In this document: one piece after another, positions 29,875 through 63,016 of the stretch
Layout: every line of letters begins with the position of its first letter
Position numbering within the stretch: the first letter of the stretch is position 1
Virus record (IMG/VR): IMGVR_UViG_2693429827_000001
Location: 4,085 to 68,084 of that record
DNA from: a virus
Lineage: Duplodnaviria > Caudoviricetes
Length of the DNA: 64,000 nucleotides
Reading direction: 5' to 3' (one strand)
Made by a program: the position numbers and the translations under genes
The notes under the pieces: model-generated
The model's input: only the letters and a program-made list of their open reading frames with translations
Database searches by the model: none
Told to the model about the DNA's origin: nothing

Positions 29875-30099
29875 ATGACCACGTATAAAGTCCGCCTCAA
29901 GCTCGACGATCTATTAAAAGAGCGCGGCATAGGCGATCGCGAATTCGGACGCATGACCGGAATACGTTATCCATCTATCGGAGAGATGCGGGCAAACAAG
30001 ACGGTGCGGCTCCCGCTTGATAATCTCGCGAAAATATGCGAAGTGCTCAACGTTGAGATTACGGACGTACTCACGCTAGAAAAAGAGCCGCGCGATTAA
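29875..30099 (+). CDS. Cro/C1-type HTH regulator
   Basis: LDDLLKERG...EFGRMTGIRYPSI...LAKICEVLNVEITDVL. Confidence 0.85.
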   Translation: MTTYKVRLKLDDLLKERGIGDREFGRMTGIRYPSIGEMRANKTVRLPLDNLAKICEVLNVEITDVLTLEKEPRD

Positions 30100-31949: not shown

Positions 31950-31977
31950 CCGATCCCCACCTCTCAACTATTTCGAA

Positions 31978-38131: not shown

Positions 38132-38617
38132 TTACTTTCCCTCCTTTATTTTATTGATTCTGGCTAAATCTCCGTGAAGATCAACTGCCGCCTTGTTGTA
38201 TGCCACTGCGGCTTCCTCAGCAGTTGAGTGTCTGCCTAAACTTTTCCGAACCCCGTGATTAGTGATATATGCCTCCCAGTTGCCTCTACTCTTACAAAAA
38301 CTCACCCCAAGATACCCTGACGTATTGTTAGATGGAATTCCTCTATTCAGGTTATTTTCTCGATTATTTACCACGCGAAGATTGCTTCTCCTGTTATCTA
38401 ATCTGTTCATGTTAATGTGATCGCCTTGAATATTACTCCCCTTGCCGTGTATACCTAACAACTGTCTATGCATGAGAATTATCTTTCCAGATTCTCTCCT
38501 TGCAGCATAACCACTAGAAGTTAGATGCCAACTATATTTACTGATGGCGTCAAAATCCTCATTGTCTATAAGAGAGACAGCTCCCTTGGTTAGAGAAATT
38601 GACTTAACGGCGCTCAC
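38132..38617 (-). CDS. HNH endonuclease with AP2 domain
   Basis: DHINMNRLDNRRSNLR, NTSGYLGVS, EEAAVAYNKAA..LHG. Confidence 0.9.
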   Translation of the reverse strand: MSAVKSISLTKGAVSLIDNEDFDAISKYSWHLTSSGYAARRESGKIILMHRQLLGIHGKGSNIQGDHINMNRLDNRRSNLRVVNNRENNLNRGIPSNNTSGYLGVSFCKSRGNWEAYITNHGVRKSLGRHSTAEEAAVAYNKAAVDLHGDLARINKIKEGK

Positions 38618-48860: not shown

Positions 48861-50306
48861 TTACGCCGACTGGTCGAACCGTTGCTCGACCGGTACGACT
48901 AGTTTTACGCGCCTCGACACAATCCACGGACAAGTTCTATCTGTTCCCGTTGACAAACGTAGAACATCATCATCACCATGTGTCACCACGTCAACCAGTC
49001 CTACACGATAACCGCTACTACCGCTCTCCATTACCTCAACGATATCGCCGCGCTTAAACTCGTTAACCTCGCGTCCAATCTTCGCCCATTTAGCGCGCTC
49101 GGCTTCCCGCGCAGCTTCTTCCGCTTTATTGCGTTCGATTTCCGCTGATTCCTCCGCAGTCAGCTTCGTTAGTTCGTTTGGCTTCGCGCTCCATCCGGAT
49201 TGAGACGGGAAGTCCACCGTGATTAACGAATTAGACACGCTGGCTACCTTACCGATATCACCGTTCTCTACCTCACCGAATCCGTGTTTCGGACGCTGCC
49301 CTTCAGTGAGCGAAAGTTTAACGGTGTCGCCGACTTCAAACGTTGGCTTAGGCGCAGTGGCAGCGTCAAACTCCTCTTTCGTAACCTTGCGCAAGGCGTC
49401 CGCATTTGCGAATCCAAGTGTGGTGCTATCCGGATTTTCAATCGTAAGTGCGCGTACTCCTTCCGGACCAAATTCGGATACTATGACGTATTTACCTTTG
49501 CTCAACCTCACGCCGGTACTTGCGTTGTCATCCGAAGGGTTCTCGATCACCGCGTAGCCGCCGCCCTTAAAATCGCCGAGTTTTAACGCGTATTTGGCTG
49601 CGGCGACCTCATCGTCAGTTGCTCGGACAAATCGCTCCGCCTTGAACCATGCGGTTTCTCCGCTAAGTACCTGCTTACCGCGGAAAGGTGTCGAGCTCCC
49701 GTCGTCCGTGGTAATCTCAAAAACATCCCCTACTTTTACCCATGACTCCGGTGTAGAGTCGTCGATAACTCCCACGCTAATTACCTTCGCATACTCTCCG
49801 ACTCTCAGGCGTTCAGGCTGCGCAGGTTGCGTTGCAGTCTCCGCGGCTACCGGTTCGAGTACGACGTATTCGCGGTACAAAACGAATTGCGTATCGTTTA
49901 CGTACAGGTCGCCGCCGTAATACGCGTCAGTAACCGTAAACTCTGCGCCATTTTCGTAGCCGTCTTCGCTGCGATCTTTATCGACGATACGGATGCGTTC
50001 ACCAACTGTCGCCTTCCGTTTAACCTCGCGATATTGTTGCGGCGCCAGTTCCGTCACCTTCTCGTAGACTTCGAAGGACAGATTACAAGTATCGCAACCA
50101 TCTCCGTCTTCATCCGTAATCTGCGCGTCCCCGCAGCTATCTACTTCGTCAACCGCATAAAACGCACCATTGACTACGTATCTAGGCGCATCCTCATCGG
50201 TAATACGGATAACGTCGCCCTCTTGCGCACTACGGTCAACCTTACGGTATTTCGCACCGTTAATCTCTACGTCTGCCACCGGAATAATTACGTTCAATTT
50301 CGCCAT
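48861..50306 (-). CDS. Hypothetical protein of tandem SH3/KOW-like repeats
   Basis: About six units beginning (V/E)G(D/E)..(R/K)(I/V). Confidence 0.7.
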   Translation of the reverse strand: MAKLNVIIPVADVEINGAKYRKVDRSAQEGDVIRITDEDAPRYVVNGAFYAVDEVDSCGDAQITDEDGDGCDTCNLSFEVYEKVTELAPQQYREVKRKATVGERIRIVDKDRSEDGYENGAEFTVTDAYYGGDLYVNDTQFVLYREYVVLEPVAAETATQPAQPERLRVGEYAKVISVGVIDDSTPESWVKVGDVFEITTDDGSSTPFRGKQVLSGETAWFKAERFVRATDDEVAAAKYALKLGDFKGGGYAVIENPSDDNASTGVRLSKGKYVIVSEFGPEGVRALTIENPDSTTLGFANADALRKVTKEEFDAATAPKPTFEVGDTVKLSLTEGQRPKHGFGEVENGDIGKVASVSNSLITVDFPSQSGWSAKPNELTKLTAEESAEIERNKAEEAAREAERAKWAKIGREVNEFKRGDIVEVMESGSSGYRVGLVDVVTHGDDDVLRLSTGTDRTCPWIVSRRVKLVVPVEQRFDQSA

Positions 50307-50358
50307 ATATAATCGTCTCCTTTTATATTCGAATTGGACTTGCGTAAAACTCAGTTAA

Positions 50359-50784
50359 TTAGGCGGCTACAGCAGCGGTAGTACTAAAAGCTTCGCGGTC
50401 TAGTGAAATACTTAGCTCCACCCAACGTTTAGCCGCCGATGCTTCGGACGCCCAGTACTCTCCGTAACCTTTGTTCTCGAACATGTACACGCGCGGAACC
50501 TCGCCATTTTGCGCCCAGACGCCAACAATGTAGCCAGCATCGGATTTAGCGTAAGGCTCTCCGTTCCCTTTCTTCGCGTACACAACGAGTTCGTTATTGC
50601 GGTCGGACCGTTGCCTAATGGTCTTCACTTGAATCTTAACGTACGCTCCGGACAGCGGATCTTGCGCAAGGATATCGTGCGCTTCGGCCGTCTCCGATTC
50701 GTACACCGTCCATCCATTCGCGAGTAACGCAGCTCGTGCGATTAGCTCGGAATAGGTACCCGTAATTTCCGTAATATGCGCCAT
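50359..50784 (-). CDS. PD-(D/E)XK endonuclease-like protein
   Basis: G..SE, HDIL, KIQVKT. Confidence 0.7.
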   Translation of the reverse strand: MAHITEITGTYSELIARAALLANGWTVYESETAEAHDILAQDPLSGAYVKIQVKTIRQRSDRNNELVVYAKKGNGEPYAKSDAGYIVGVWAQNGEVPRVYMFENKGYGEYWASEASAAKRWVELSISLDREAFSTTAAVAA

Positions 50785-51057
50785 TCATTCGCCCTCCTTT
50801 TCGGGTATAAATACGATTTCCATTTCGCCGGGTCCGCCGTCAGTCTTCGGATACTCTATCGGTCCGATCGCGCTGGCCTCGGTAGGCTCAACGCTGACCG
50901 CGATATTTACCGTGAAGAGTCCGTGTTGATCGGTTAGATTCGTTAGGAACTTCGCTACATATTCGCCGACTTTCGGAAGCTTATTCGCAGCGTCTACGTT
51001 AATGCCGATGGAAAGCGTGCGTCCTTCGGGTCCTAGCGGAAATCCTGGATCGCTCAT
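50785..51057 (-). CDS. Hypothetical protein
   Basis: GGAGGTG RBS before the ATG at 51057. Confidence 0.6.
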   Translation of the reverse strand: MSDPGFPLGPEGRTLSIGINVDAANKLPKVGEYVAKFLTNLTDQHGLFTVNIAVSVEPTEASAIGPIEYPKTDGGPGEMEIVFIPEKEGE

Positions 51058-51073
51058 GCCGCGACACCTCCGT

Positions 51074-51262
51074 TTAGTTAGTTGCGGTTCTTGCGGCCGC
51101 ACCGCCCAGTATCGATACGATAACGATAAGGGCAGCCGCTTTAATAAGACCGAAGTCCACCTCGAATACGAACGTAATCAATAGCGATAGCACATACGAT
51201 ACGGCCGCGAAGAAGCCGGCGTATAAGACCAGGTAAAGTAACGCGGTAAGTGCGTTTTTCAT
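51074..51262 (-). CDS. Small membrane protein
   Basis: Two TM helices; GGAGG RBS. Confidence 0.65.
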   Translation of the reverse strand: MKNALTALLYLVLYAGFFAAVSYVLSLLITFVFEVDFGLIKAAALIVIVSILGGAAARTATN

Positions 51263-51283
51263 GCGCAGTCCCTCCCTTCGTTA

Positions 51284-52081
51284 TTAAAACGGCAGTTCTT
51301 CGTCGCTGATATCGATTGGTGCGTCATCACCTGCGGGTTCCGGCGCGTTGTTAGTAGCGTTAGCTCCGATTGATAATCCGAGGCGCGCGATATCGAATCC
51401 GGCGATTACGAGGTTCTTGATTTGCTCGTCCTCGTCCGCAATGAATAAGCACGATTCGAACGATTCCATATCGAACGGTTTCTCGCCGAGTTTAGCGAAG
51501 TTCTTGCGTTCGGCATCCGATAAGTCTTCGTCCATATCGATGATCGGTGATAGCGCGACGACTGCGTTTGTGCCGGTACCAGACTTCGAAAGTTCGAACG
51601 CCAGGCTATCGAGTTTCTTCGCGTACTTTTCGATGACGGCCTTGAGCGTCTTCTCTTGCTTAGGCGAGAGGTCCACTACGATGTCCTTACCGGTCTCTAA
51701 GTCGAAGAATGCGCGTAAGAAACGTTGCTTGCCGCGGTACAAATACGCTTCGTCCGTGATTTCTTTGACTGCGTCTTCACTGGCGCCGGCTTCCTTCGCT
51801 TTCTTAGCGTCGGCATAAAGGAGCTCAGATGCGCGGTCCCATACGGACGGGTCGGACTCAACGAAGCCGCGAGCGTTACGTTTAGCCTGCACCGTCGGAA
51901 CAAACGTGTTTACTTTCTTGTAGATGCTGTATCCGTAGTACTCAGCGACATCGAACACGGATTTAACGCCGACCTTAAACGTGCTGCCCGACTTGAACGA
52001 TACGATCGGACTTTCTTGCGCCCCTCCGTCATTGTTAGAAGCCTGGACCGCTGCTTGCCCTTTACTCGCGAAGATTGACAT
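51284..52081 (-). CDS. Putative single-stranded DNA-binding protein (gp32-like position)
   Basis: Acidic tail DISDEELPF; upstream of the polymerase block; ATG at 52081 with GAGGAG. Confidence 0.65.
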   Translation of the reverse strand: MSIFASKGQAAVQASNNDGGAQESPIVSFKSGSTFKVGVKSVFDVAEYYGYSIYKKVNTFVPTVQAKRNARGFVESDPSVWDRASELLYADAKKAKEAGASEDAVKEITDEAYLYRGKQRFLRAFFDLETGKDIVVDLSPKQEKTLKAVIEKYAKKLDSLAFELSKSGTGTNAVVALSPIIDMDEDLSDAERKNFAKLGEKPFDMESFESCLFIADEDEQIKNLVIAGFDIARLGLSIGANATNNAPEPAGDDAPIDISDEELPF

Positions 52082-52109
52082 TAACACAACACTCTCCTCG
52101 GTTTTAATG

Positions 52110-52240
52110 TTCGAGCGTGGATTGCGTATCGGATACGTGTGCACTCCGTATCGTCTACGACTTACGTTTAGTTCCTACGCTCGCGGCACGGCACTAACGG
52201 TCAAGTTCACGTTAACACCGCGCAGCCGGCGTAGGAGGAC
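52110..52240 (-). ncRNA. Candidate structured leader RNA of the SSB gene
   Basis: Outer stem UCCUACGC/GCGUAGGA; inner 14-bp stem with four G-U pairs on the minus strand; second hairpin GAUACG/CGUAUC. Confidence 0.55.
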
Positions 52241-52266
52241 CGGCATTATAATAGGAAACGATTAGT

Positions 52267-52833
52267 TCACACGTAAGCTACAACGCTTTTCATTACGTTC
52301 GTTTTCTCGCGCTGAACGTGGATCAATTCCGCGTCTAAAGCGCTAATTTCACGGTCAATCTCCGCAATGCGTGCGGCCATTTCCGATACAACACGATTGG
52401 ATTCCGATTTAGCTCGGCGCAACTCCGCCTGGGCGCGCTCAACACTGAGCTCGGCTTTGCGTATATTAATGCGTTTAATCTCGCGTTTCTCTTTTCGTTC
52501 AGCCGCGTTAATGGCGCGCTGAATAATGCGCTCAATCGGATTGCGTACGATTTCGTTCGCTTTATGCTGCGGATACAGCGTATAAACGGTCGATTCGGTC
52601 GGATGAACGATGAATACCGTGCGTCTGTACGCGAACATGCGGCCGGGTTTGCCCTCTTCGTCGATGACGTGCGCAGATACTAGCGATGCTTTACGCAACA
52701 AATCCATTACGTACATTGGCGCCTTGCTGCGTTCGACGCCGAAATGTTCCGTAGCGCGATCGCAAGCGTGAGGGGAAACGAATATCTTACCGACAAAGTG
52801 CGTGCCGGCCTTCGGGTCGATTGCGCAACTCAT
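52267..52833 (-). CDS. Hypothetical protein with C-terminal coiled coil
   Basis: VSPHACDR N-domain; coupled to the upstream ORF. Confidence 0.7.
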   Translation of the reverse strand: MSCAIDPKAGTHFVGKIFVSPHACDRATEHFGVERSKAPMYVMDLLRKASLVSAHVIDEEGKPGRMFAYRRTVFIVHPTESTVYTLYPQHKANEIVRNPIERIIQRAINAAERKEKREIKRINIRKAELSVERAQAELRRAKSESNRVVSEMAARIAEIDREISALDAELIHVQREKTNVMKSVVAYV

Positions 52834-53021
52834 GCGAGACGCACCGCCTTTGCCAGCGATTTGGTAACGATATAGTCAGCGGAGTCCTCGTACGGCTCGA
52901 CTGCTCCGTCGTAAAAGTAATTCGCTTGATTGCGGTGATAATTGTTACTTTTATAATAAAAACGCGAAACCTCGTTGTTATTTGAACGTAAAATACCGTA
53001 AATGTAACGTGCCATGGGCAT
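52830..53021 (-). CDS. Small Tyr/Asn-rich hypothetical protein
   Basis: AGGAGG RBS before the ATG at 53021. Confidence 0.6.
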   Translation of the reverse strand: MPMARYIYGILRSNNNEVSRFYYKSNNYHRNQANYFYDGAVEPYEDSADYIVTKSLAKAVRLA

Positions 53022-53051
53022 AATCCTCCTAAAAAATATTGGCAAAAGCGG

Positions 53052-53112
53052 TTGTAACGTGTTACAATTCACGTTGTGAGCGATTAAATGTAATGCGTTA
53101 CAAAACGTTACG
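53052..53112. promoter_or_regulatory. Palindromic operator array
   Basis: TTGTAAC-GT-GTTACAA (53052), TGTAAT-GC-GTTACA (53089), further half site CGTTAC. Confidence 0.6.
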
Positions 53113-53263
53113 CCAGTGAATTTGCATTTTCACAAAAATAATACATAAAATGGTTAATAAGTAACTGCATGTTAGATTGACACCTATGTTAAAATGTATA
53201 TAGAGGCTGTTAGTCGGACTTCATGCCTAAAAGCCCGACTTACGATCTCTATAATTTTCAAAA

Positions 53264-53950
53264 TTAAGAAGCTGTAGTTACAAATTCGCGTTTAACTTCT
53301 ACTCCATTGGGTAAGTAATGTAATAAGTCTCCATGTTGGGTAGAGTTAAAATGGCGAGCAAGACTGCGGAGCTTGCGGTCAACTGAGTTGCGGTGTACTC
53401 CTAACACTTTGGCGAGTGTTCCGAGTTTAACATCCTCATTCTCAGCAATTTCTTCAAACCCTTTGATGACGGACATCATCACTGGGTCATTATGGATCTT
53501 CGCGGATTCTAGAATGAAGGCGATCAATTGGCGTTGATCGTCTTTATTCTTTTTACAGATACTTTCAACTACGTCTGATTCGAACTGGGCTTCGGTTCCC
53601 CGTTCTTGATTCAGTTTAAGTTCAATGAGAGTTGGCGTGCTCTCTTCGCCTTCTGAATCCCGGGATGGCGGCTGCAGTTTGACTCGTCGCGCATAGGTTC
53701 CTTCTCGTCGTTTAGTGATTCGTGATGCTTTCGATCTAAGCGTTTTGTTTAACCAAGTTGTTAGGCTCGCTCCTTTGGTCGGGTCATATTTTCCGTACTG
53801 TATCCAGAACTCTTCACTTAATTGACTTTCAAACTCCTGGATTGGGATGAAGCTCCTTCGGCTAAACTCTTTCGAAATTGCGAGGATTAAGAATCTGTGT
53901 TGTCGGTAAGCTTCACTGAATTTTTGCTGTTCGTCAATTGTTTGTTGCAT
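53264..53950 (-). CDS. Phage-encoded sigma-factor-like protein
   Basis: Region 2-like KYDPTKGASLTTWL; C-terminal HTH LAKVLGVHRNSVDRKL. Confidence 0.75.
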   Translation of the reverse strand: MQQTIDEQQKFSEAYRQHRFLILAISKEFSRRSFIPIQEFESQLSEEFWIQYGKYDPTKGASLTTWLNKTLRSKASRITKRREGTYARRVKLQPPSRDSEGEESTPTLIELKLNQERGTEAQFESDVVESICKKNKDDQRQLIAFILESAKIHNDPVMMSVIKGFEEIAENEDVKLGTLAKVLGVHRNSVDRKLRSLARHFNSTQHGDLLHYLPNGVEVKREFVTTAS

Positions 53951-53969
53951 TCATTTACCTCCTCATGTG

Positions 53970-54009
53970 CTTATACTTATTTATTTACCGCTACTTTTTA
54001 GTTCGTACA
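53970..54009 (-). promoter_or_regulatory. Conserved 40-bp phage promoter-like motif, copy 2
   Basis: TGTACGAA-cta-AAAAGTAGCGGTAAATA-aataa-GTATAAG, directly before the sigma gene RBS. Confidence 0.75.
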
Positions 54010-54051
54010 CTTTTGGTAGAAAATTTTATAAAAATAATTTCGGAGGCATTT

Positions 54052-54270
54052 ATGGCTTATACAGTCACTAAATGCCTGCTCGGAGAGATACTTGCTGAAA
54101 AGAAAATGACAAAAGCTGAACTGTCCCGACGCACTGGGATAGGAGAGACTATGATTCACGACTACATATCTCTGCGGAACATAATGGGGCTAGACAAAGC
54201 TAAGATAATAGCAGAGGTACTTGAACTTGAATCACCTTTTATGTTGTATAAGTGGAAGAAAATTAGGTAG
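54052..54270 (+). CDS. XRE-family HTH regulator
   Basis: MTKAELSRRTGIGETMIHDY; GGAGG RBS. Confidence 0.85.
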   Translation: MAYTVTKCLLGEILAEKKMTKAELSRRTGIGETMIHDYISLRNIMGLDKAKIIAEVLELESPFMLYKWKKIR

Positions 54271-54308
54271 ACCCCGAGCAGGTGCGCGTTGGCTTAGCCC
54301 TCGTGCCC

Positions 54309-55277
54309 TTAAACCCTCGGGAATTCCCGAATGTTTAGACGGACTGTATCCTCGATTAGTTGCGCTTGTCCGCAAATACTCCGAACTTTTTCCGCATCTC
54401 TTATCTCGTTGAAATCCTTATACTCGCGCGGTATCTCCACGTCATACTGAGCGCAATATCCTCGCATCTTCTCGCTAATCTGTCGCTTAAGCTTGGCGCC
54501 AGCCGCATCGTTATCCTCACCGTGTAGTAGTTCTTCGATCGGACTCCGCTTCAACATATCCGCACGCTCGTCCGTAAACTCTGCGCCGCCTACCGCAATC
54601 GCCGGTACTCCGCATGACCAAAGATACATAGCGTCAATCTCGGCTTCGACTACGGCGGCCCTCTTAATTCCTTGCGCATAGATTACGTCGATACCGAATA
54701 TCATCGATTTAACGGGCGCCCCTCGCGTACTGTACCAAAAAGCCTTCCCCCACGTTGCGCGAAACTTTGCGTTTAAGACGTCCCCTTGCGGAGATTTCCA
54801 CGGCATAACTGCGGCCTTTCGTTTAGCATCGTGACCAACTCCGAACATGCGCTGTATTTCCGGCGAGATTCCGCGTCCGGTTAGATACGAAACCTCACCG
54901 TTAAGATATTCGGTTATGTCAATCGGCTTCGGACGTGAGAGCGCCTGAGTTTCCGTTAGCTTTATACGTATGCGCGGCTGTTCTTCCGCGACTTCTTCGG
55001 ACGATAATTTCTCGCGTGCTTCTTCGTATGTAATGTCCAAAATATACGCGGCTAACTTCGTCGGCCCTCCGCTTGCCCAATCCGGATCTATCGCTCCCTT
55101 ATCGGACCAACAACCGAAGTATTCTGACGTTGTATCTAAATTTATGTAAAACGATGGTGTTTCGTCAGGCCGATCGCGGAAGGGCGAACTCGCTATCAGT
55201 TTCGTTGGATGTGCGCGCCTATTTCGCCAGTCATGTGATTCGACTGTGCTCAAAAACGCATCAACGTTAACCTCCAT
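54309..55277 (-). CDS. DNA primase (TOPRIM)
   Basis: YL..RGI, VVEAEIDAM, EDNDAAG, KDFNE; degenerate zinc-finger region. Confidence 0.88.
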   Translation of the reverse strand: MEVNVDAFLSTVESHDWRNRRAHPTKLIASSPFRDRPDETPSFYINLDTTSEYFGCWSDKGAIDPDWASGGPTKLAAYILDITYEEAREKLSSEEVAEEQPRIRIKLTETQALSRPKPIDITEYLNGEVSYLTGRGISPEIQRMFGVGHDAKRKAAVMPWKSPQGDVLNAKFRATWGKAFWYSTRGAPVKSMIFGIDVIYAQGIKRAAVVEAEIDAMYLWSCGVPAIAVGGAEFTDERADMLKRSPIEELLHGEDNDAAGAKLKRQISEKMRGYCAQYDVEIPREYKDFNEIRDAEKVRSICGQAQLIEDTVRLNIREFPRV

Positions 55278-55358
55278 GTATTACCACCTCCCTATTGATT
55301 TCTATAATGAGTGTTGGTATGATTCAAAGTATACATATTGTATCATGTCATATATTGG

Positions 55359-55387
55359 ATGATAGTACACAAATCGTTTACTGTCAA
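55359..55387 (-). promoter_or_regulatory. sigmaA promoter for primase
   Basis: TTGACA-N17-TATCAT. Confidence 0.7.
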
Positions 55388-55426
55388 TATAAAGAATGTT
55401 CGCTATTATTTGGGGAGGAATACATA

Positions 55427-55654
55427 GTGCCTTACAGCGAAATTTTGGCTTTAAACATTAAGAAATATAGAGAATTAAGAGGACTGGAACAACAAGCATT
55501 AGCAGATACAATTAATGTAACTAAGCAAGCTTTAAACAATTATGAGACAAAGAGAAGAAAAGTTCCTGTAGATTTAGTACCTTTAATTGCAGACGCACTC
55601 AGTGTGTCAATTGAGACATTGTACGGAAGATCAGACGAGAGTGAGCAAGTTTAA
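55427..55654 (+). CDS. XRE-family HTH repressor (75 aa, no peptidase domain)
   Basis: IKKYRELRGLEQQALADTINVTKQALNNYET..R; GTG start with GGAGG. Confidence 0.85.
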   Translation: MPYSEILALNIKKYRELRGLEQQALADTINVTKQALNNYETKRRKVPVDLVPLIADALSVSIETLYGRSDESEQV

Positions 55655-57003
55655 AACCCACTCACGTCCGCAAATTGTTGAGCCTCTTCACGCATACATA
55701 ACTCGCGCAACACCCCGTAATCTAGGAGAGCGATAAGGTCTACGGTAAAGCCTTCGCCACCATTTCTGCCCTTTTCAACGCCGATCTTTCCATTACCGTT
55801 TACGGCGTCGAACACGAATAGGTTAGTCGCTATCTCTAATACCGCTTTCGTCGTTTTGACTTGGTCGCGTTTGGGCAGTTTAATCTCGCGTTGCTGCCCG
55901 TCTTCAACCTCCTGGCGTTCGGTATGCGCCTGTATCGTAAACATCCCGACAACATCGTGCTTACCGATTATCGCCTCGAACCTACGCGCGGCTTGTTCCG
56001 CAGCTCCACCCGTTGTCTTATTCGAGTTACGGCCGTATACATCCGAAAGTCCGTAGAACGGATCAACGAGCACGGCATCCACGTTGCCTATGGCGTGCAG
56101 CTCTCGGTCTAAATCGTCGAGCGTTCGCGTTAAGTCCGCATCCCCTTTCGCCTGCAGAATCAGCGTACCCGGATAGTACTCGTTAAGCTTATCGACGATA
56201 TCGAATAAATACGTTTCAAGCTCGTCGGCTAATCGTCCGGACAATATCGCTTTGTTCGGCAGCCCTACTTTAACCTCGAACTCGTCGGAACTAATCGCCT
56301 CTTCTCGCGCAGTAATTATCGAGATCAAGCGGCTGATCCACGGATACCATTTCACCTCGTACGACTTAACGAGTACTTTCGCACCCTGGCGTAGTAATTC
56401 GTCCACGATCACTTCGGACAAATACGTCTTGCCGCGACCACTCTCCGCCATAATTCCGTAAATGTCGCCGGAATAGAGACCGCCTATTTCTTCGTTAAGT
56501 GACGGGAAAGGAGTGCGCCACAGTTTGAACGATGTTCCGGCTTTACGTTTCTCGTATTCTTCACGGAACCTGTTCGGGATCGTTACGAGTGCGTTCGTAT
56601 TTTTGCGAACACTTGTTCCGGTAACTTCCATTTTAATCCCATCGAGCGTTTCCGTCAATGATTCGATAAAACTTGCGGAGTTTTTCTCTTGGAATTGAGC
56701 GTCAAGTCCGTTGATGGTCTCCGCGATGCGCCGTTTGCCCCACTCGTCCTTAAGTTTGCCGGCCAGATATTCGACAGAATCGGATACGTCCGGTACGTAC
56801 ACAATGTCCGGATGCTCTGCGGCAAGTATAGCGTAAGATGGCGTGCACCCCTCGTTTGAGTCTGCGTATCTCTGGATGGCCTGGACACATTTGCGCTCTG
56901 CTTCCGTGGCGAAGTCCGTTGGTTTGATGTTATACGTTATTAGATCGGTGGCGTTGCCTGCGTTGATGATTTTCGATATTAAAAGTTGACCAGTTGCACT
57001 CAA
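55651..57003 (-). CDS. dnaB: Replicative DNA helicase (DnaB-like)
   Basis: AESGRGKT Walker A, SYE, VLVDPFY, IQA, EKGRNG. Confidence 0.9.
   Translation of the reverse strand: MSATGQLLISKIINAGNATDLITYNIKPTDFATEAERKCVQAIQRYADSNEGCTPSYAILAAEHPDIVYVPDVSDSVEYLAGKLKDEWGKRRIAETINGLDAQFQEKNSASFIESLTETLDGIKMEVTGTSVRKNTNALVTIPNRFREEYEKRKAGTSFKLWRTPFPSLNEEIGGLYSGDIYGIMAESGRGKTYLSEVIVDELLRQGAKVLVKSYEVKWYPWISRLISIITAREEAISSDEFEVKVGLPNKAILSGRLADELETYLFDIVDKLNEYYPGTLILQAKGDADLTRTLDDLDRELHAIGNVDAVLVDPFYGLSDVYGRNSNKTTGGAAEQAARRFEAIIGKHDVVGMFTIQAHTERQEVEDGQQREIKLPKRDQVKTTKAVLEIATNLFVFDAVNGNGKIGVEKGRNGGEGFTVDLIALLDYGVLRELCMREEAQQFADVSGF
56606..56658 (-). promoter_or_regulatory. Intragenic sigmaA promoter with downstream LexA (Cheo) box
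   Basis: TTGACG(56658-53)-N17-TAAAAT(56635-30); CGAAC-ACTT-GTTCC at 56606-56619. Confidence 0.6.
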
Positions 57004-57059
57004 GTTGTTTCACCCTCTCAAGTGCCATGATACCCTCTGTATCATCTTCTACAGACAGC

Positions 57060-57151
57060 ATCATAACACAACGTAATAGTAATAACAATAAAAATACCAC
57101 AATATATTGATTTTTCTTACGTTTCAGGCGTTAAAATACTACATATAGTGA
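57060..57151 (-). promoter_or_regulatory. Helicase sigmaA promoter with two NrdR-like boxes
   Basis: TTGTTA-N17-TATGAT with TGn extension; ccaCAATATATTGatt (57097) and ataCTACATATAGtga (57136). Confidence 0.55.
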
Positions 57152-57180
57152 TTAACAATCAGTACGCGACTGATTAAGAA

Positions 57181-57951
57181 TCAGGAAGCAGATCTCCTTA
57201 GTCCCCGTTTACTCCCGCCTTTAAACTCGATCGTTATACACATATCGCGCACTCTATCCGCTAACCTCGCGTCAAATACCGACGCAAGCTCCTCGATCTT
57301 AACGTTAGACGTGTATACGGTTGGCAGTCCGCTCGTTACACGCTCGTTAATCACCGCATGCATATCCGCACGAAACGCTTCGCTCGCACTCCTAACGCCT
57401 ATATCATCGAGTACAGCGAACGGGGCCGATTTAGCCTGCGCTTCCATCGCGTAATAACGAGCGGCTAGGGGTTCCGCTGTTTCTCTCGGCACGTTGGCGC
57501 GATTAAATCCGAGGAACAACGTCTGCCACGCGTTTACATCGAGAAAGTATGCCGGACGCTCCAACGGTTGCCTATTCCGTTGGATACTTCCGATATAATG
57601 GCGGATCATATAATCGTTCAGAACCGCGGCAGCCGACGTTGTTTTGCCGGTGCCGGGACTGTCCGAGTAGAGGTACAGCGATTTGATACGTTCACCCTCT
57701 TCGTCAAATTGGCGTTTGAACGTGGTAACGTATTTATCTATTAAAGCATAGGCCTCCGGTTGATCCCCGCGGGCTGGCGAGTTCTGCAGCGTAACCATCC
57801 GATAGTCAGCCGGAACGCCTGCGGTTGTCGTGCGGCCTCCTGCTCCGTTATGGCCGTGTAGCGCGATGTACGATCCGCAAATTGCGTTACACTTCGGTCC
57901 GTTGGCGAGCGAACAGTGTTGCGATAATATGCATTTGTCAGCGTGGGACAT
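57181..57951 (-). CDS. DnaC/IstB-like ATPase (helicase loader)
   Basis: PGTGKT, VLDDIG, YTSN, RLADR, G.SKR. Confidence 0.88.
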   Translation of the reverse strand: MSHADKCILSQHCSLANGPKCNAICGSYIALHGHNGAGGRTTTAGVPADYRMVTLQNSPARGDQPEAYALIDKYVTTFKRQFDEEGERIKSLYLYSDSPGTGKTTSAAAVLNDYMIRHYIGSIQRNRQPLERPAYFLDVNAWQTLFLGFNRANVPRETAEPLAARYYAMEAQAKSAPFAVLDDIGVRSASEAFRADMHAVINERVTSGLPTVYTSNVKIEELASVFDARLADRVRDMCITIEFKGGSKRGLRRSAS

Positions 57952-58029
57952 TGCGTACCTCCTTATTTAGAATATAGACTATAAAAAACATTAAAAGTGT
58001 GATTTTCCGATTTATTTTTTAAAACTTTT

Positions 58030-58425
58030 TTACAGCCATTCCGCAAGCTCCTCCGCAGTCATCCCGCTGTTATCCGGCGTCTGCTTCGCTCTCTCTTGAC
58101 GCTGCCTATCCGCCAAGAGTCGCGGCATAACCGTGTTCAACCGGTAGCTTATCGCAAAGCCCGCCGTTAGGATCGGATACTGCTCGTTCGGCCGGTACTC
58201 CCTAAATATCTGCGTAAATGCTTCGTGTAATAGTTCCGCGCCGTACTCGTCTAGCGCCCGTTTGATCATGCCGCGTTCGGCCGCCCAATTGCGCATCGGC
58301 AAGTACGTTTCCACTCCGTAATGTTCTCTGTTTAGGTCTGCAAACATCTGCAGTACCGTCGCGGTGTTCCACTTGTCATACGGTAGATTGCGCCAGTCCT
58401 TGCGGTCAACCTTCGGCTTTGGCAT
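58030..58425 (-). CDS. Hypothetical replication-associated protein
   Basis: Directly upstream of the loader; GGAGG RBS. Confidence 0.65.
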   Translation of the reverse strand: MPKPKVDRKDWRNLPYDKWNTATVLQMFADLNREHYGVETYLPMRNWAAERGMIKRALDEYGAELLHEAFTQIFREYRPNEQYPILTAGFAISYRLNTVMPRLLADRQRQERAKQTPDNSGMTAEELAEWL

Positions 58426-58906
58426 TTCGCAGTGCCTCCCTTGCTTTGTAAATAGCGTTATCAACTCCGATGGACATTTTCGTTGAATGTAAACGGCCGT
58501 GATCGAATAATCCGATAATACCCGCGAGTGCTCCGCTTAATTCGAATACCGTACCTACGTTCCGCGCATTCTCCGCCTTCAAACGTTCAATTTCTAACGT
58601 AACGTCAATCGCAACCTCCGATTCATGTTCGATGAACGCATGTAACCGTTCGACCTCCGCCTCAGCTTCGATTGCCCTCCGCACTGCTTCCGGCCAACCT
58701 TCGCGTGCTTGAGCGATGAACTCTGCGTCTGCTTCTTCCGGCCAATATTCCGCGTAATTAGTTCCGTGTTTCGGCGCTTTGATAAGTTGCATAACGCCGA
58801 GAGTACCGCCGAATAACTGCCAAGTATCTGCGTTGTTCTGTGCGAACCATGGCCCGGGCGTTGCCGCTTCGCATAGCGTAAAGTCAGCGTGTAAGTTTCG
58901 TTTCAT
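58406..58906 (-). CDS. Ea22/Ead-like hypothetical protein
   Basis: AATPGPW...DAEFIA.AR motif. Confidence 0.7.
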   Translation of the reverse strand: MKRNLHADFTLCEAATPGPWFAQNNADTWQLFGGTLGVMQLIKAPKHGTNYAEYWPEEADAEFIAQAREGWPEAVRRAIEAEAEVERLHAFIEHESEVAIDVTLEIERLKAENARNVGTVFELSGALAGIIGLFDHGRLHSTKMSIGVDNAIYKAREALRNAKAEG

Positions 58907-59031
58907 TTGTCCGCCTCCTCTTTTAGTGTAATACCTCAATAATCAAAAGTAAATGTTCGTATTTGACACGAACACAAGATGACAATTATGTGAATATTAA
59001 CATCTTATACTTGACAATTTTAACTGGTTAT

Positions 59032-59370
59032 TTATGCATTCACCCCTTCGATTTGGATTCCGAGTTCCGTAAGCACGAATTCTATTCCGTCCGCGTAACC
59101 GTCGTCATACTGGAAACAGCGGTCATTGTCGCGAACCAGCCACGCTTCCTTAATAGTCGCAATCTTCCGTTCCTCTTCGGTCATTTCGCGCTCATACCCG
59201 TTAACCAGCGCTGCGAGCAATGTGTCGAACGGAATTGACTTAAGTGTACCGCTAGGCGCTGAGTGTAGCGTGCTTCGTATAATACTGGCGTTATCTTCGC
59301 CGAGACTTCGGTACCGTTCGATAACTTCCGCAACTTCTGCGGGTATAACCGGTTTATTAACGTTACTCAT
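59032..59370 (-). CDS. Hypothetical protein (DUF1642-like)
   Basis: KPVIP.EVA..IE...AL.NGYE. Confidence 0.65.
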   Translation of the reverse strand: MSNVNKPVIPAEVAEVIERYRSLGEDNASIIRSTLHSAPSGTLKSIPFDTLLAALVNGYEREMTEEERKIATIKEAWLVRDNDRCFQYDDGYADGIEFVLTELGIQIEGVNA

Positions 59371-59470
59371 TCCGCTCACCCTTTCCGTAATATTCGATGA
59401 TATCGTCAACTGTTACGAGTTCCATTCCGTAAAACCTCCGCTTATATAGATATACGGGACTAGCGCGAAA

Positions 59471-59879
59471 TCACACGCTATCCGTTAATTTTGCGATAAT
59501 TGCAGCGAGACATATCGCTTCTGGCGCCGTTTTTGCTTGCGTGACTTCATGTCCGTGCGCGTACTCTACGTTATAACCATCTGCGGTTGGGTATATCGCC
59601 CATATTGGCGTTAGTCCTCCGGAATCCAGCTTTTCGAGAACCTTCCACGCCCACCGTATATCAACTGACGGACGGAACCAATCCTGCGGACCAGTATGTA
59701 GCGAACAATCCGATTCCAAAGCAACAACTAGCCCATCCGTGTCCATCCAGACAACGTCACCCTCCTCCTCCTCCAGGTCGCGAAATTCTGCGCCAGCCCA
59801 TGACCTCTCTAGCAACCCACGCGTCACGTTCACGCGGAGACATTCCGTTCCACTTAGCGATAATCTGATTGCGATCCAT
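59471..59879 (-). pseudogene. Frameshifted BC1872/ABA-sandwich-like gene
   Basis: ATG at 59879 gives MDRNQ...ERDAWVAREVMGW...PGGGGG*; the C-half (PSVDIRWAWKVLEK...TAPEAICLAA) is in another frame; junction at (GGA)4GGG. Confidence 0.7.
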
Positions 59880-59937
59880 CGAAAAACCTCCTATATATAT
59901 AGATATGGACAAGCGAGGTAAAATCCCACACTAATCG

Positions 59938-60237
59938 TTAATTTATTTTTTCGATAACGTAGATGTCACCGCGCGATTTGACTACTTCGTACTTGGTCGC
60001 GTCGATAACGTGGCCCGGTTGCAGAGTGACCTCATGGCGGATGGTTATATCTAAATTCGCGTGTAAGATAAACGCCATGAATGCGAACCAAGCTGCACCG
60101 GCTAACCCTTGAAGAACGTGCTTAAATTCAGACTGGAGTATGCTGATAAAGAACATAAACACCGCCGCTATACTCGCGACCCAAACGAATATGATTCCGA
60201 CCGTATCCGCTACCTCGTACGTATTCAAAACATTCAC
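59938..60237 (-). CDS. Membrane-anchored hypothetical protein
   Basis: Two TM helices plus a small beta domain. Confidence 0.65.
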   Translation of the reverse strand: MNVLNTYEVADTVGIIFVWVASIAAVFMFFISILQSEFKHVLQGLAGAAWFAFMAFILHANLDITIRHEVTLQPGHVIDATKYEVVKSRGDIYVIEKIN

Positions 60238-60463
60238 TTTGCGATCTCTCCCCTCGTATGCTTACGATTAGATTCGACATAGACACCGACTCGCCATCGA
60301 CATGCAACTCGCCCGTTTCAGCGGTCAAATATTTACGCCTTAACACTTCGTCAATCAAATGGATAGCGTTTCTCGGTCCGATAAATCCTCCGATACATTT
60401 AGAGGTTATTTGCGTAATCTCGCTAAGTCGGCGTTCGTTAATCTCCGCCTGCATTCCGTCCAT
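60128..60463 (-). CDS. Hypothetical protein
   Basis: AAGGAG RBS; 3' end overlaps the next gene by 110 nt. Confidence 0.5.
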   Translation of the reverse strand: MDGMQAEINERRLSEITQITSKCIGGFIGPRNAIHLIDEVLRRKYLTAETGELHVDGESVSMSNLIVSIRGERSQSECFEYVRGSGYGRNHIRLGREYSGGVYVLYQHTPV

Positions 60464-60531
60464 TTTACCGTCTCCTTTACGTTAAATTATCGCCTTACTC
60501 GCCGACCCCTCCGTTAACCCTACCGCACGCC

Positions 60532-60879
60532 TTAAGCGCCTATTTTCACGGTAATTTCCGGCAATTTCGCGGCGTTAATCGCGTCGACTAATCGTTCGGT
60601 CTCAGCGGACAATGCCGCCATCAATTCGGTGAGCGTCGTCGCGTTCGATAGGGCAGCCGACTTCATGCGGACACGGTCGAGCGCTGCGGTTAGGCCGGTG
60701 GATGTGAGCGGATAGTAGCCGGCGTCGTCCCAGCGTTCTTTTAATTCCGGAGTCGATGCGTTTTCCTCCGGTTTGTAGCCGGGCGCTTTCGTGGGATCGA
60801 CGAGTTTGCGTTGCTTGACGATGAATTGCGCGCTGTCTGCGGTTAAGCGGAAATTTTCGTTTAGTTGAATAGCGTTCAT
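60532..60879 (-). CDS. Hypothetical protein
   Basis: AGGAGG RBS; ATGA coupling. Confidence 0.7.
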   Translation of the reverse strand: MNAIQLNENFRLTADSAQFIVKQRKLVDPTKAPGYKPEENASTPELKERWDDAGYYPLTSTGLTAALDRVRMKSAALSNATTLTELMAALSAETERLVDAINAAKLPEITVKIGA

Positions 60880-61292
60880 ATTGCGTCCTCCTTCGCGTCA
60901 ATAGTGATCGTAAGGCTGCCGTCATCATTTAGAACTACGCGCTGATAATCGTTTATATAGTCGTAGTCGCCGCCCCACGGTACGTAAATATACTCGGAAC
61001 TGCCGTCGCGATAACGGATACTTAACGCTGTGATATCGCTGTGCTCTGTTAAACGTCCGAATGGGGAAGCAGTATCTCCGCTCCAAAACGTATACGCCGT
61101 TCCTACGTTTGCCTGCGGTTCAATTGTTGCGAAAAAATGTTCGCAAACGACCGTTTCACTAACGCTATTACATGCGATTCTACGGATTGAGCGTGTAATA
61201 TCGGAAATACGGACCTCACGCATATGCTCCGCTACAATTTCAATTGATTCGCAATTTTCGAGGACTAACTCGATAAAAACTACGTCTTTCAT
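60876..61292 (-). CDS. Hypothetical protein
   Basis: GGAGGTG RBS before the ATG at 61292. Confidence 0.7.
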   Translation of the reverse strand: MKDVVFIELVLENCESIEIVAEHMREVRISDITRSIRRIACNSVSETVVCEHFFATIEPQANVGTAYTFWSGDTASPFGRLTEHSDITALSIRYRDGSSEYIYVPWGGDYDYINDYQRVVLNDDGSLTITIDAKEDAI

Positions 61293-61510
61293 ATAAACAC
61301 CTCCGAATATTCTATTTGCTTTGTTTATAAGCTCGTGATTCGCTTCGCTCATTCTCGCCGTCACTATCGTTCCGTTGTATCTATTTATACGCGTTAATAG
61401 ATATTTAGATATTGATACGCGCACTAGGAATGAGGTACGAATGACGACGTGCAATGTTTTATCTAGTTATTAATGGCTCTTGTTAAAGATGGTTATAGTT
61501 AGTGTGCATA

Positions 61511-61555
61511 TAACCATGTTGGCATCTACCATGTTGAAGGTTGCAGACATGGTTA
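61511..61555. repeat. Short direct and inverted repeats, candidate phage replication origin
   Basis: ACCATGTTG at 61513 and 61528; inverted TAACCATGT/ACATGGTTA; AT-rich flank; directly after the HTH initiator. Confidence 0.55.
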
Positions 61556-61975
61556 CTATCCGCTATCTAACGTATCTGGCTCCGCATCAAATATCGCAAG
61601 TTGACTGATCGGAAGTACCGTGTACCGCGTATTCTGCCACGTACCTTTGGGCGCCCTATCTTTTATTGCGTGTATCACCGGACGCCCGTTCCAGCGATAT
61701 TCCGTTAACCGCCTTACGTACTTGTTCGCAGTCGTGCGGTTGACTCCGAGGTACTTCGCGATCTGATCTTGCGTAGGATAGCAATTACCTTGCGCGTCCA
61801 TAAACGAAGCGATAACGCAAAGTGTCGCCCAGTTCTGCGCTCCCATATCCGCTATAAGTCCGGCCTTAGCGGCATCGACGTACATTTTAACGAAGATGCG
61901 CGTTTCGGTAGCGCCTGACGTTACGGAATATTCCGTTTGGGACTCTACGCTGACGAGACGTTGATGATCGGTCAT
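61556..61975 (-). CDS. HTH replication-initiator-like protein
   Basis: CYPTQDQIAKYLGVNRTTANKYVRRL...NTRY. Confidence 0.75.
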   Translation of the reverse strand: MTDHQRLVSVESQTEYSVTSGATETRIFVKMYVDAAKAGLIADMGAQNWATLCVIASFMDAQGNCYPTQDQIAKYLGVNRTTANKYVRRLTEYRWNGRPVIHAIKDRAPKGTWQNTRYTVLPISQLAIFDAEPDTLDSG

Positions 61976-62862
61976 GCTGCGTCCTCCTTCGCTGGGTTAT
62001 CATGACACCAGTAAACGTATTCGCGATACTCTTCGGTGGTCATGTCGTTTTGTTCCGCTAATTTGGCGATTAGCGAGTCAAACCGAGATTGATCAAGTTC
62101 AAAGCGTTGCCTATTCGCTTCGAACCATTCGAAGATGTTTTTATCGTTCTTGGAGGAGTTTAGGTCTTTCCTCAATGGTATCAAGTTACCGTAGTAAGTT
62201 CCTCCGTGACCCGATACAACTGGGATGACGTGGTCTAAAGCGTACTTTAACGATCCGGTGAATACACATCTTCCTCCGAAATCGCTACGAAGCTTAAGTG
62301 CATCCTCCGGAGAGAAGTCATCTCGCAAGAAATTAATTCGAGTCCTACGTCTCTGAGCGGCTGCGATTGTGATGTGTCTACTGCATTCTGTACATTTAGC
62401 TCGAATACCGAGTCGACTATCGATATTTCCGTGGAAATCACTTAAAGGGAGATCACGCCGGCACACCGAACATTGACTATAAACATGCTCGTAGGCAAAC
62501 GTTGCCTTTTTAAATCTAAGATATCTTTTGAGAGTTTTATACTTATCTCGGACATACGCCGAGAGTCGATGAACTTCGTCGTATTCGTTCAGGTGCACTT
62601 TTTCAAAAAGAAAAGATCTGCGTACGATATCATCTAAAGCGTCCTCGCAATCCCACTCGTCGTACGGCACTAGTCGTATGTCACACGATTCTACTTTGTC
62701 GAGTAGTTCATCAAAAGGCACATAAATCTCTAATTTGCACCTTTTAATAGCCCTATCAACATACATATGGTGAATACCCATTTTCGAAGCTACCTTGCTC
62801 GGGGAGTATCCTGCATCAAGTAATTCCTGCATTTCCTCTAACCTACTTGCTGGCTTCTTCAT
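61972..62862 (-). CDS. HNH endonuclease with N-terminal HTH and zinc-finger
   Basis: CSVC...CTEC, LDHVIPV..G.GG...GNLIPL...LNSSK. Confidence 0.85.
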   Translation of the reverse strand: MKKPASRLEEMQELLDAGYSPSKVASKMGIHHMYVDRAIKRCKLEIYVPFDELLDKVESCDIRLVPYDEWDCEDALDDIVRRSFLFEKVHLNEYDEVHRLSAYVRDKYKTLKRYLRFKKATFAYEHVYSQCSVCRRDLPLSDFHGNIDSRLGIRAKCTECSRHITIAAAQRRRTRINFLRDDFSPEDALKLRSDFGGRCVFTGSLKYALDHVIPVVSGHGGTYYGNLIPLRKDLNSSKNDKNIFEWFEANRQRFELDQSRFDSLIAKLAEQNDMTTEEYREYVYWCHDNPAKEDAA

Positions 62863-62910
62863 TCCGTTACCTCCTTCCGTCTTTGTCTTTTGCGCAAATA
62901 TTTTTCGGCG

Positions 62911-62950
62911 CCTATACCGATATATTTACCGTTACTTTTCCGTTCGTACA
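62911..62950 (-). promoter_or_regulatory. Conserved 40-bp phage promoter-like motif, copy 3
   Basis: TGTACGAA-cgg-AAAAGTAACGGTAAATA-tatcg-GTATAGG. Confidence 0.75.
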
Positions 62951-62970
62951 ATTTTCTGCGGATTCAACGC

Positions 62971-63007
62971 AAAAAAAATAACGCCCACCTCCGTAGAGAT
63001 GAGCGTT
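62971..63007 (-). terminator. Intrinsic terminator after integrase
   Basis: AACGCUCAUCUC...GAGGUGGGCGUU stem plus U8. Confidence 0.8.
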
Positions 63008-63016
63008 TGTATTCCG

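Follow-up and report, generated by a model that had tools for sequence, protein, structure and literature searches.

We examined a stretch of 64,000 nucleotides, called the window here, which covers bases 4085-68084 of the 68,084-base IMG/VR provirus record IMGVR_UViG_2693429827_000001, a record rated complete by CheckV. Almost all genes of the window are carried on its minus strand, and one of them, encoding a DnaB-like replicative helicase, contains the hexamers of a sigma-A-type promoter followed closely by a candidate operator for the host repressor LexA. A previous reading made from the letters of the DNA alone, referred to below as the sequence-only reading, had taken this element for a hidden SOS switch. 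The helicase gene and the parts of the element are as follows.

55651-57003, minus strand: DnaB-like replicative helicase of 450 amino acids (PHROG 19, E 3.1e-31; weak Pfam matches to DnaB_C and AAA_25)
56658-56653, minus strand: -35 hexamer TTGACG, in helicase codons Leu116-Thr117
Between the two hexamers: spacer of 17 nucleotides (nt)
56635-56630, minus strand: -10 hexamer TAAAAT, within codons Ile-Lys-Met 123-125
56623, minus strand: predicted transcription start, placed 7 nt after the -10 hexamer from promoter geometry
56619-56606, minus strand: candidate Cheo-type LexA operator GGAAC-AAGT-GTTCG, with its core GAAC-N4-GTTC at 56618-56607; the plus-strand reading of 56606-56619 is CGAACACTTGTTCC

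The TTGACG-N17-TAAAAT promoter and the box described by the sequence-only reading are indeed present inside the helicase gene, at 56658-56606 of the minus strand, and the promoter has 10 of 12 consensus matches with its spacer of 17. GAAC-N4-GTTC, ideally CGAAC-N4-GTTCG, is the LexA (DinR) site of the Bacillota, also known as the Cheo box, and CGAACACTTGTTCC matches 9 of the 10 specified positions. The box begins 11 nt after the -10 hexamer, and given a start near 56623 its 14-mer would occupy about +5 to +18, as had been proposed. Its codons specify G-T-S-V-R, residues 129-133 of the helicase.

Relatives of this helicase were found in 131 phage records. The protein has the DnaB-like layout of an N-terminal helical domain, a linker and a RecA-like ATPase with a Walker A motif (GRGKT, residues 189-193), in which G189, R190, G191 and K192 are invariant. 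An AlphaFold2 model based on a 17-row alignment, with a mean predicted local distance difference test score (pLDDT) of 67, maps the -35 and -10 hexamers to the end of the last N-terminal helix. The model has residues 128-141 as coil, with pLDDT below 50 at 130-136, between the N-terminal helical domain (to 127) and the RecA-like domain, which agrees with the inter-domain linker location claimed for the box. Among named relatives, the helicases nearest to it come from Tripp and Halcyone, two phages of Paenibacillus larvae (51-53% protein identity), and from Bacillus phage 268TH002 (46.5%). Paenibacillus motobuensis and a further genome of the Paenibacillaceae have related loci, which makes a Paenibacillus the most probable host.

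The count of boxes in the window is close to that expected by chance. We found GAACNNNNGTTC twice against 1.26 expected, a number reached by 31 of 100 shuffles, and promoter-like sites in 50000-64000 number 23 against 19.0 +/- 5.2, which is no enrichment. A promoter of at least 10/12 lies within 14 nt upstream at just 272 of 127,840 positions, and the conjunction of box and promoter is expected about 0.005 times per window, an estimate made post hoc. The second GAAC-N4-GTTC of the window (48120-48131) falls within the DNA polymerase gene, where it encodes N-E-P-S-F in a conserved exonuclease motif, and no good promoter accompanies it. Its 12 letters recur in the record of one relative (L002; L numbers denote loci of helicase relatives), which is uninformative because the entire stretch is about 90% identical there.

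The helicase relatives with DNA comprise 3 viral contigs from a protein search, 31 from a profile search and 2 bacterial contigs, to which 3 phage records were added first and 8 more later. The codon alignment has 36 rows; L011, L013 and L014 were dropped as the same contigs as L002-L004, and L039 as it is without the region. Clustering of the rows by codon identity gave 20 lineages, and the 8 further phage records bring these to 28. We found GAAC-N4-GTTC at the homologous place of the helicase in 19 of the 36 rows and 11 of the 20 lineage clusters. Four of the 8 further records also carry it, namely the Bacillus phages Mgbh1, phi18-2 and KLEB27-1 and the Sporosarcina phage Lietuvens. It is absent in the other four (Carnobacterium cd4, B. 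cereus PSYJ-YH, Enterococcus EC99P1 and EF1c55), none of which has a primase gene after the helicase.

Overall, promoter and box co-occur at the same place in 15 of 28 helicase lineages (30-66% protein identity), and the GAAC-N4-GTTC core is perfect in all 15. The box-bearing lineages include phages named for Bacillus and Sporosarcina hosts and relatives inside Paenibacillaceae genomes. At the 14 box-bearing loci other than the window, the helicase box is the sole GAAC-N4-GTTC within the roughly 6-9 kb examined, and for 3 of the 5 box-bearing records searched it is the sole one in the entire record (54-69 kb). The box stands on both sides of the deepest split of the helicase tree, with box-less clades nested among box-bearing ones, and the tree forces at least 4 changes in its presence. 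The simplest reading of this distribution is that an old element may have been lost several times.

The conservation of the element goes beyond what the protein sequence needs. Because codon identity at identical residues between lineages is just 0.29-0.66, synonymous sites are largely randomised. We held the protein sequence fixed and redrew the codons from each gene's own usage. The probability of the box given the protein was 0.005-0.114 per lineage, with a product of 5.2e-14 over the 10 non-window lineages, and the corresponding product for the -10 hexamer was 3.4e-10 over 10 lineages. These products are somewhat overstated, since the lineage pairs L016/L018 and L009/L030 are not fully independent; half the lineages still give about 1e-7. 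Over the 11 box-bearing lineages, identity at third codon positions in 8-codon windows is highest at residues 122-129 (0.754; gene-wide mean 0.393, standard deviation 0.077), the top seven windows all begin at residues 118-125, and in 9 box-less lineages the peak at residues 122-129 is absent.

The codons tell the same in another way. The pattern nGA ACn nnn GTT Cnn is constant in 15 lineages while the residues vary (G/R; S/N/G; R/P), and T-A-n-A-n-T is constant while the residues are variously IKM, IRM, IRL, IKL, IKI, AIM, LKM, LKI, SIM or VKL. L028, L029 and L037 serve as a natural control: they keep G-T-E-I-R, encoded as GGC ACG GAG ATT CGG, and have neither box nor -10. The excess of synonymous-site conservation over the -35, -10 and box, put forward with the sequence-only reading as a check in orthologs, is clearly positive by resampling, third-position peak and information content. 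Promoter and box thus appear to be maintained by selection on the DNA itself, beyond the requirement of the protein. The 3' half of the helicase gene has no second peak of synonymous constraint, which speaks against an overlapping gene there.

A chance match, or a by-product of amino-acid conservation together with codon bias, would fit the box count of the window alone and the conservation of [GR]-T-[SNG]-V-[RP] at the protein level. It is contradicted by the codon resampling, the third-position peak, the control offered by L028, L029 and L037 and the joint expectation of 0.005, and we give it almost no credence.

The DNA around the box has the form of a repressed promoter. We assigned promoters next to the box by a joint -35/-10 search, which gave sigma-A scores of 8-11 out of 12 in all 15 lineages and a 17-nt spacer in 14 of them. 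In 11 of the 15 genes no equally good promoter exists at any other position. The information is concentrated in the -35 (TTG), the -10 (T-A-n-A-n-T) and the half-sites of the box and is low in the spacer; the means over the 15 lineages are 1.39 bits for the -35, 0.72 for the spacer and 1.68 for the -10, and the TTG of the -35, kept in 14 of the 15, reaches 2.0, 2.0 and 1.6 bits. The box begins 2 nt after the -10 in 9 lineages, 8 nt after it in 3 and 11 nt after it in 3, including the window. The operator abuts the promoter, as expected where bound LexA blocks initiation.

The same geometry of -10, 2 nt and box is found in an intergenic promoter of L055, which reads TATAAT-aa-GAACAAACGTTC ahead of a YolD-containing gene pair, and an intergenic promoter of L006 reads TTGTCA-17-TAAAAT-aa-GAACAAACGTTCGA, then GGAGG and ATG. 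Hosts use this box as well: in each of the 2 relative-bearing Paenibacillaceae genomes, lexA has 2 GAAC-N4-GTTC sites within 150 nt upstream. On these motifs and spacings, the assignment of the helicase element as a putative LexA-repressed promoter of sigma-A type is well supported.

The conserved DNA could be thought to serve some other function: binding of a phage protein, signalling for replication or packaging, folding of an RNA, or a block by bound LexA to transcription of the helicase gene. A different dimeric protein could recognise the palindrome by itself, but the conservation tracks the sigma-A hexamers, the fixed 17-nt spacer and half-sites identical to the host lexA boxes. The pattern also holds across very different XRE proteins and recorded hosts of several genera, and a 12-nt palindrome would give merely a 4 to 5-bp stem. 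We consider functions of this kind very improbable.

The genes and features that a transcript from the element would meet next are the following.

55427-55654, plus strand: XRE1, 75 amino acids (HTH_3 E 2.6e-12), with no peptidase domain, convergent with the helicase gene
55632-55670, minus strand: 14-bp hairpin without a U tract, spanning the stop codons of helicase and XRE1
55387-55359, minus strand: candidate primase promoter TTGACA-17-TATCAT (11/12, from a consensus scan only)
55281-55308 and 55295-55323, plus strand: candidate XRE1 promoters, facing the primase promoter candidate
54309-55277, minus strand: DnaG-like primase (Toprim_2 E 1.1e-11; PHROG 47), the first complete sense gene downstream
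54052-54270, plus strand: XRE2 (HTH_26/HTH_3), likely start ATG 54052 behind GGAGG
53264-53950, minus strand: gene of a sigma factor like those of the extracytoplasmic function (ECF) group (TIGR02937 E 4.9e-8 over residues 10-197, below the curated cut-off)

The stop codon of the helicase (55653-55651) overlaps that of XRE1 by 2 nt, as the sequence-only reading had it. Its remark that no terminator is evident stands in part: no site with a hairpin plus U tract exists between the box and the sigma-like gene in the window, nor in L002, L016-L019 and L050, but the 14-bp hairpin spans the two stop codons and is possibly a weak two-way terminator or an RNA end. This hairpin is similar in L010 and has merely 5 bp in L002. 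The ECF-like assignment draws on the family: 4 of 6 homologs match TIGR02937, and Sigma70_r2 is matched at E 0.0047 by the window protein and at 1.9e-5 by the L002 homolog. The family profile searched against PDB sequences gave a best E of 0.04, to an unrelated protein.

Other damage sensors are almost wholly absent from the family. We searched 21 records, including the full 68,084-base record of the window, in six frames for Peptidase_S24 and Peptidase_M78. Peptidase_S24 was found in 1 of the 21, that of Tripp, which has a UmuD-like (S24) repressor and no helicase box, and Peptidase_M78 in 2, those of L032 and, below the cut-off, L028. The window's record has neither, in line with the sequence-only reading, which had recognised no such peptidase. 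Neither was found in the five box-bearing phage records that were deposited as complete genomes, and no S24/M78 cleavable repressor is present in six virus records with CheckV completeness of at least 96%. Scans of the open reading frames (ORFs) of the window with Pfam and PHROGs gave no antirepressor of the Ant, Bro, KilAC or Rha families, where none had been recognised by eye either, and no AimR match was found among the ORFs scanned.

The sequence-only reading had the transcript silence XRE1 by antisense pairing or collision and then start a sigma loop, which is possible in the window but not conserved. The corresponding rival explanation would make this the main function of the element, antisense transcription through XRE1 (RNA pairing or polymerase collision) derepressing the primase and sigma promoters. 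The convergence of XRE1, its overlapping stop and the lack of a U-tract terminator are in its favour, together with the strong primase promoter candidate (11/12) that lies inside the upstream region of XRE1 and faces the XRE1 promoter candidates. So are the missing peptidases and antirepressor families and the lack of a convincing small sense ORF with a ribosome-binding site opposite XRE1. At least one antisense small ORF follows downstream in 11 of the 15 box-bearing lineages, with a helix-turn-helix (HTH) domain in 9; that of L016, between helicase and primase, has no Pfam match and that of Mgbh1 is annotated as hypothetical.

However, XRE1 stands at the end of the helicase gene in only 3 of the 15 (the window, L010 with 36% and L002 with 58% identity), and L017, L018 and L019 show no antisense ORF in the 2.4 to 3.5 kb examined downstream of the helicase. 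The transcript must also pass the junction hairpin, which may terminate it. In the available part of their preprint, the authors on phage phi106 deem an earlier antisense model for that phage 'most likely not consequential' (bioRxiv 10.1101/2025.11.23.689978). Antisense control of XRE1 is thus possible for the window, L010 and L002 only, and we regard it as unlikely to be the main function of the element.

Two smaller observations belong to this region. A small ORF of the AimX kind antisense to XRE1 was sought and rejected: the only ones present are mirror ORFs of the XRE frame, without a ribosome-binding site and absent in L010, and the small sense ORFs of the window and L002 are alike because their XRE genes are homologous. 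The candidate promoters of XRE1 and primase face each other so that their transcripts would overlap at the 5' ends, a layout that recalls the face-to-face promoter switch known in coliphage 186.

The region after the helicase has a shared order with exchangeable parts, namely helicase, a variable cassette, primase, antisense XRE gene(s) and a regulator. The cassette is an antisense XRE gene in the window, L010 and L002, a sense HTH gene in L019, L012 and L006, an HNH endonuclease in L009 and L032, and in others another gene or nothing. A primase gene comes after that of the helicase in every one of the 19 other lineages in the first set and in Mgbh1, phi18-2, KLEB27-1 and Lietuvens. XRE2 is antisense to the unit and divergent from the sigma-like gene, and has homologs in L002, L010, L030, L009, L020, L027 and L005.

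What follows the primase is of three types. Divergent small XRE genes with the sigma-like gene are found in the window, L002, L010, L005, L012 and L015. AimR takes this place in L009, L027 and L030 (by domain match), in phi18-2 (by record annotation) and in KLEB27-1, and an annotated sigma-factor gene follows in 3 of these 5. In L017 and L019 a gene of about 225 amino acids with no assigned family is followed by AgrB and a LytTR regulator; the stretches concerned, downstream of primase and the 225-residue gene, are L017:6835-7903 and L019:7030-7563, with an AgrB-like gene in both and LytTR also in L017. Since either AgrB-like or AimR proteins are encoded there, different cell-to-cell signalling systems share one slot in this phage family.

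In lineages without the helicase box, another position of the same transcription unit often appears to have a LexA-boxed promoter. In L006, L012 and L015 the box lies 2.0-2.7 kb upstream, before the genes that lead up to loader and helicase. In L028 the box (L028:2842-2853) falls between the hexamers of TTGATA-17-TAAAAT, where the primase gene ends, about 100 nt before the next gene, whose resemblance to the sigma-like family is faint; L028 is thereby the second example of a boxed promoter that is partly within coding sequence. Because the relocated boxes of L006, L012, L015 and L028 share the DNA downstream of primase, they support a transcript running into the primase and switch region.

Further boxes were noticed in relatives without the helicase box. 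GAACAAACGTTC occurs in canonical promoters at L055:1472, L056:1033, L057:1030, L044:1277 and L045:1303, which precede YolD-like genes in three IMG/VR proviruses and, in Tripp and Halcyone, a 128-residue gene (gp30, gp31) adjoining the integrase. In Enterococcus phage EC99P1 (L053:2367-2380), GGAACAGGTGTTCG lies in a loader-like gene, 116 nt before the helicase start, and may be due to chance or be another intragenic site.

The element might be a genuine LexA promoter without being the trigger of induction, for example a silenced secondary promoter or a boost to primase and replication during damage, with induction decided elsewhere. Primase is the sole gene that always follows, relatives have LexA-boxed accessory genes (YolD-like) without a role in induction, and the record of L032 has both the box and an M78 protease. 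Against this stand the near absence of other known damage sensors and the reappearance of a LexA promoter in the same transcription unit where the helicase box is lost. We judge such a bystander role improbable.

We therefore favour a reading in which the helicase ORF carries a sigma-A promoter and a LexA operator that serve as the DNA-damage input of this phage family, and put its probability at roughly 0.62. In a lysogen, host LexA would keep the helicase-internal promoter shut, and upon DNA damage the RecA-stimulated cleavage of LexA would open it. Sense transcription would then pass the 3' half of the helicase gene, enter the primase gene and reach the lysis-lysogeny switch, made of antisense XRE gene(s) and the ECF-like sigma or, in relatives, of AimR or Agr-like modules. 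The signal might be read out through sense expression of sigma or AimR, through interference with XRE genes, or both. Given this presumed output of the promoter and small XRE repressors that seem unable to self-cleave, the element would be the point where damage is sensed.

Several points weigh against this reading. LexA binding, promoter activity, read-through and the effect on induction are what we infer from sequence, and the window taken alone has no excess of boxes. The record stops at the integrase gene, so that a cleavable repressor could lie just past the end of the prophage. Some of the transcription could end at the hairpin between helicase and XRE1. Terminator-like sites stand after aimR and before the sigma gene in the AimR-bearing relatives, so read-through to sigma is not a universal output. 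The transcript would open with about 970 nt of helicase coding sequence, and this stretch would be a long untranslated leader, since no conserved internal start codon or Shine-Dalgarno sequence follows the box in the helicase gene and no second constraint peak exists. A shortened helicase from an internal start was rejected on the same ground, the candidate Met185 not being kept in L047-L050. The loss of the box at least 4 times indicates that it is dispensable in some contexts.

Damage induction of prophages is usually explained by repressor self-cleavage, ImmA-type proteases or LexA-controlled antirepressors at intergenic promoters. Coliphage 186 has a LexA-controlled tum antirepressor and face-to-face pR/pL promoters with transcriptional interference, and phages of the Gifsy and N15 types have LexA-controlled antirepressors. 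As in the present proposal, SOS enters these phages via a LexA-repressed phage promoter and not through repressor cleavage, and 186 illustrates that convergent transcription can set a lysis-lysogeny switch. Their promoters are intergenic and their antirepressors recognisable, whereas none was recognised here directly downstream of the boxed promoter. In the Bacillus thuringiensis tectivirus GIL01, LexA helped by the phage protein gp7 represses the lytic promoter. Both cases concern Bacillota temperate phages without a CI-type cleavable repressor, in which LexA represses, or here would repress, the promoter of replication and regulatory genes. They differ in that GIL01 is a small linear plasmid-prophage with intergenic boxes and a required phage co-factor, and the present prophage has several XRE genes. 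LexA-boxed accessory genes of the yolD/uvrX type are also known in Bacillus prophages such as SPbeta. They share the operator and the -10-to-box geometry, and the relatives of our prophage carry YolD-like genes behind such a box. Those boxes are intergenic and serve accessory repair genes, while the present one is embedded in an essential replication gene and faces a regulatory region.

The closest parallel is Bacillus phage phi106, for which the accessible part of one preprint places a LexA site ahead of aimX in an arrangement convergent with AimC, a short repressor that is non-cleavable; the site was verified with non-cleavable LexA and site mutants (bioRxiv 10.1101/2021.09.20.460909). In a later preprint, as far as its accessible part goes, AimX is a small antirepressor protein whose effect is not ascribed to antisense RNA, and many arbitrium phages are without a LexA site at aimX, leaving their damage input an open question (bioRxiv 10.1101/2025.11.23.689978). 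To judge from these sources, both systems would sense damage in a Bacillota temperate phage without repressor self-cleavage, through host LexA gating a phage transcript directed toward, or antisense to, a short HTH repressor without a cleavage domain. The phi106 box is described there as intergenic, within an aimR-aimP-aimX module whose effector is an antirepressor ORF of 29-80 amino acids. Here, in contrast, promoter and box are contained in the helicase ORF, at a distance of 1.3 to 2.7 kb from the switch genes, and the window has no AimR among the ORFs scanned and no AimX-like ORF candidate bearing a ribosome-binding site. The AimR-bearing relatives differ in gene order, with XRE genes upstream of aimR and the sigma gene downstream.

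A search of the full-text literature, excluding the preprint supplements that list arbitrium LexA sites, returned no paper that reports a LexA-boxed promoter within the helicase gene of a phage. The genome announcement of 268TH002 and 268TH007 calls both phages temperate and, in its available portion, mentions neither LexA nor arbitrium (PMC9476937). Prophage induction under direct control of LexA is already known, so the claim of an undescribed regulatory system was too strong; the new part is the selected intragenic placement. The observation made by the sequence-only reading is confirmed, and its core, a LexA-boxed promoter of apparent sigma-A type hidden in the helicase ORF in the company of XRE repressors without the means to self-cleave, has gained support; taken as a whole, its interpretation is partly supported.

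The remainder of the window, in transcription order, is as follows.

63017-64000: tyrosine integrase, followed by DNA-binding and replication-initiation proteins
57181-57951: DnaC-like loader, preceding the helicase
After the sigma-like gene: DNA polymerase A, ribonucleotide reductase, nucleotide-metabolism genes and many HNH endonucleases
31545-31967: second small sigma-like gene
29875-30099, plus strand: third XRE gene
At the end: terminase, head, contractile-tail and lysis genes

The three small XRE/Cro genes (29875-30099, 54052-54270 and 55427-55654) are antisense in an otherwise one-directional genome, and each is placed just upstream of a new block: one ahead of the primase, one ahead of the sigma-like gene at 53264-53950 and one ahead of the late region that lies below the second sigma-like gene (31545-31967). 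A role as checkpoints from one temporal class to the next is possible for them. Scattered through the nucleotide-metabolism block are four HNH endonuclease genes (30805-31548, 35062-35613, 37092-37508 and 38132-38617), and HNH genes also stand directly after the helicase in L009 and L032. A serine recombinase/invertase (Resolvase E 3.1e-40) is encoded at 25632-26198 on the plus strand, between the small terminase gene and the regulatory region, in a prophage that already has the tyrosine integrase at its end.

The AT-rich gap of 177 nt between loader and helicase (57004-57180) has a candidate promoter TTGTTA-17-TATGAT (57088-57060) and an inverted repeat TGATAC-N5-GTATCA at 57027-57045, whose half-site ATGATAC occurs again at 55340 in the XRE1-primase gap (55331-55350). 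As a shared operator ATGATAC is at most a lead, with 7 occurrences in the window against 8.0 expected and hence no enrichment; 3 of the 7 are in the two regulatory gaps. Megablast of 54300-57100 against phages gave zero matches, and no Rfam family reached its gathering score over the whole window. Contigs of four sequencing runs covering 55200-57100 hold close relatives only, one of them about 97% identical with 53 differences.

About half of the examined helicase lineages carry the element, and any other recognisable sensor is nearly absent from these phages. Gene-based annotation would miss the likely sensor, which is inside an essential ORF and visible as synonymous-site constraint alone, and regulatory DNA can evidently persist in phage coding sequence across protein divergence to about 30% identity. 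In its strongest form, the proposal would be that this phage family has left damage sensing wholly to LexA, with the intragenic promoter both necessary and sufficient and acting across the XRE genes into the sigma or quorum-sensing genes; we hold this to be doubtful as it stands, yet a serious candidate. The hypothesis is cheaply testable in the culturable B. subtilis phages 268TH002 and phi18-2. If true, it would account for damage sensing in arbitrium phages that have no LexA site at aimX, and a single hidden entry point would connect SOS with arbitrium, Agr-like signalling and plain XRE/sigma switches alike.

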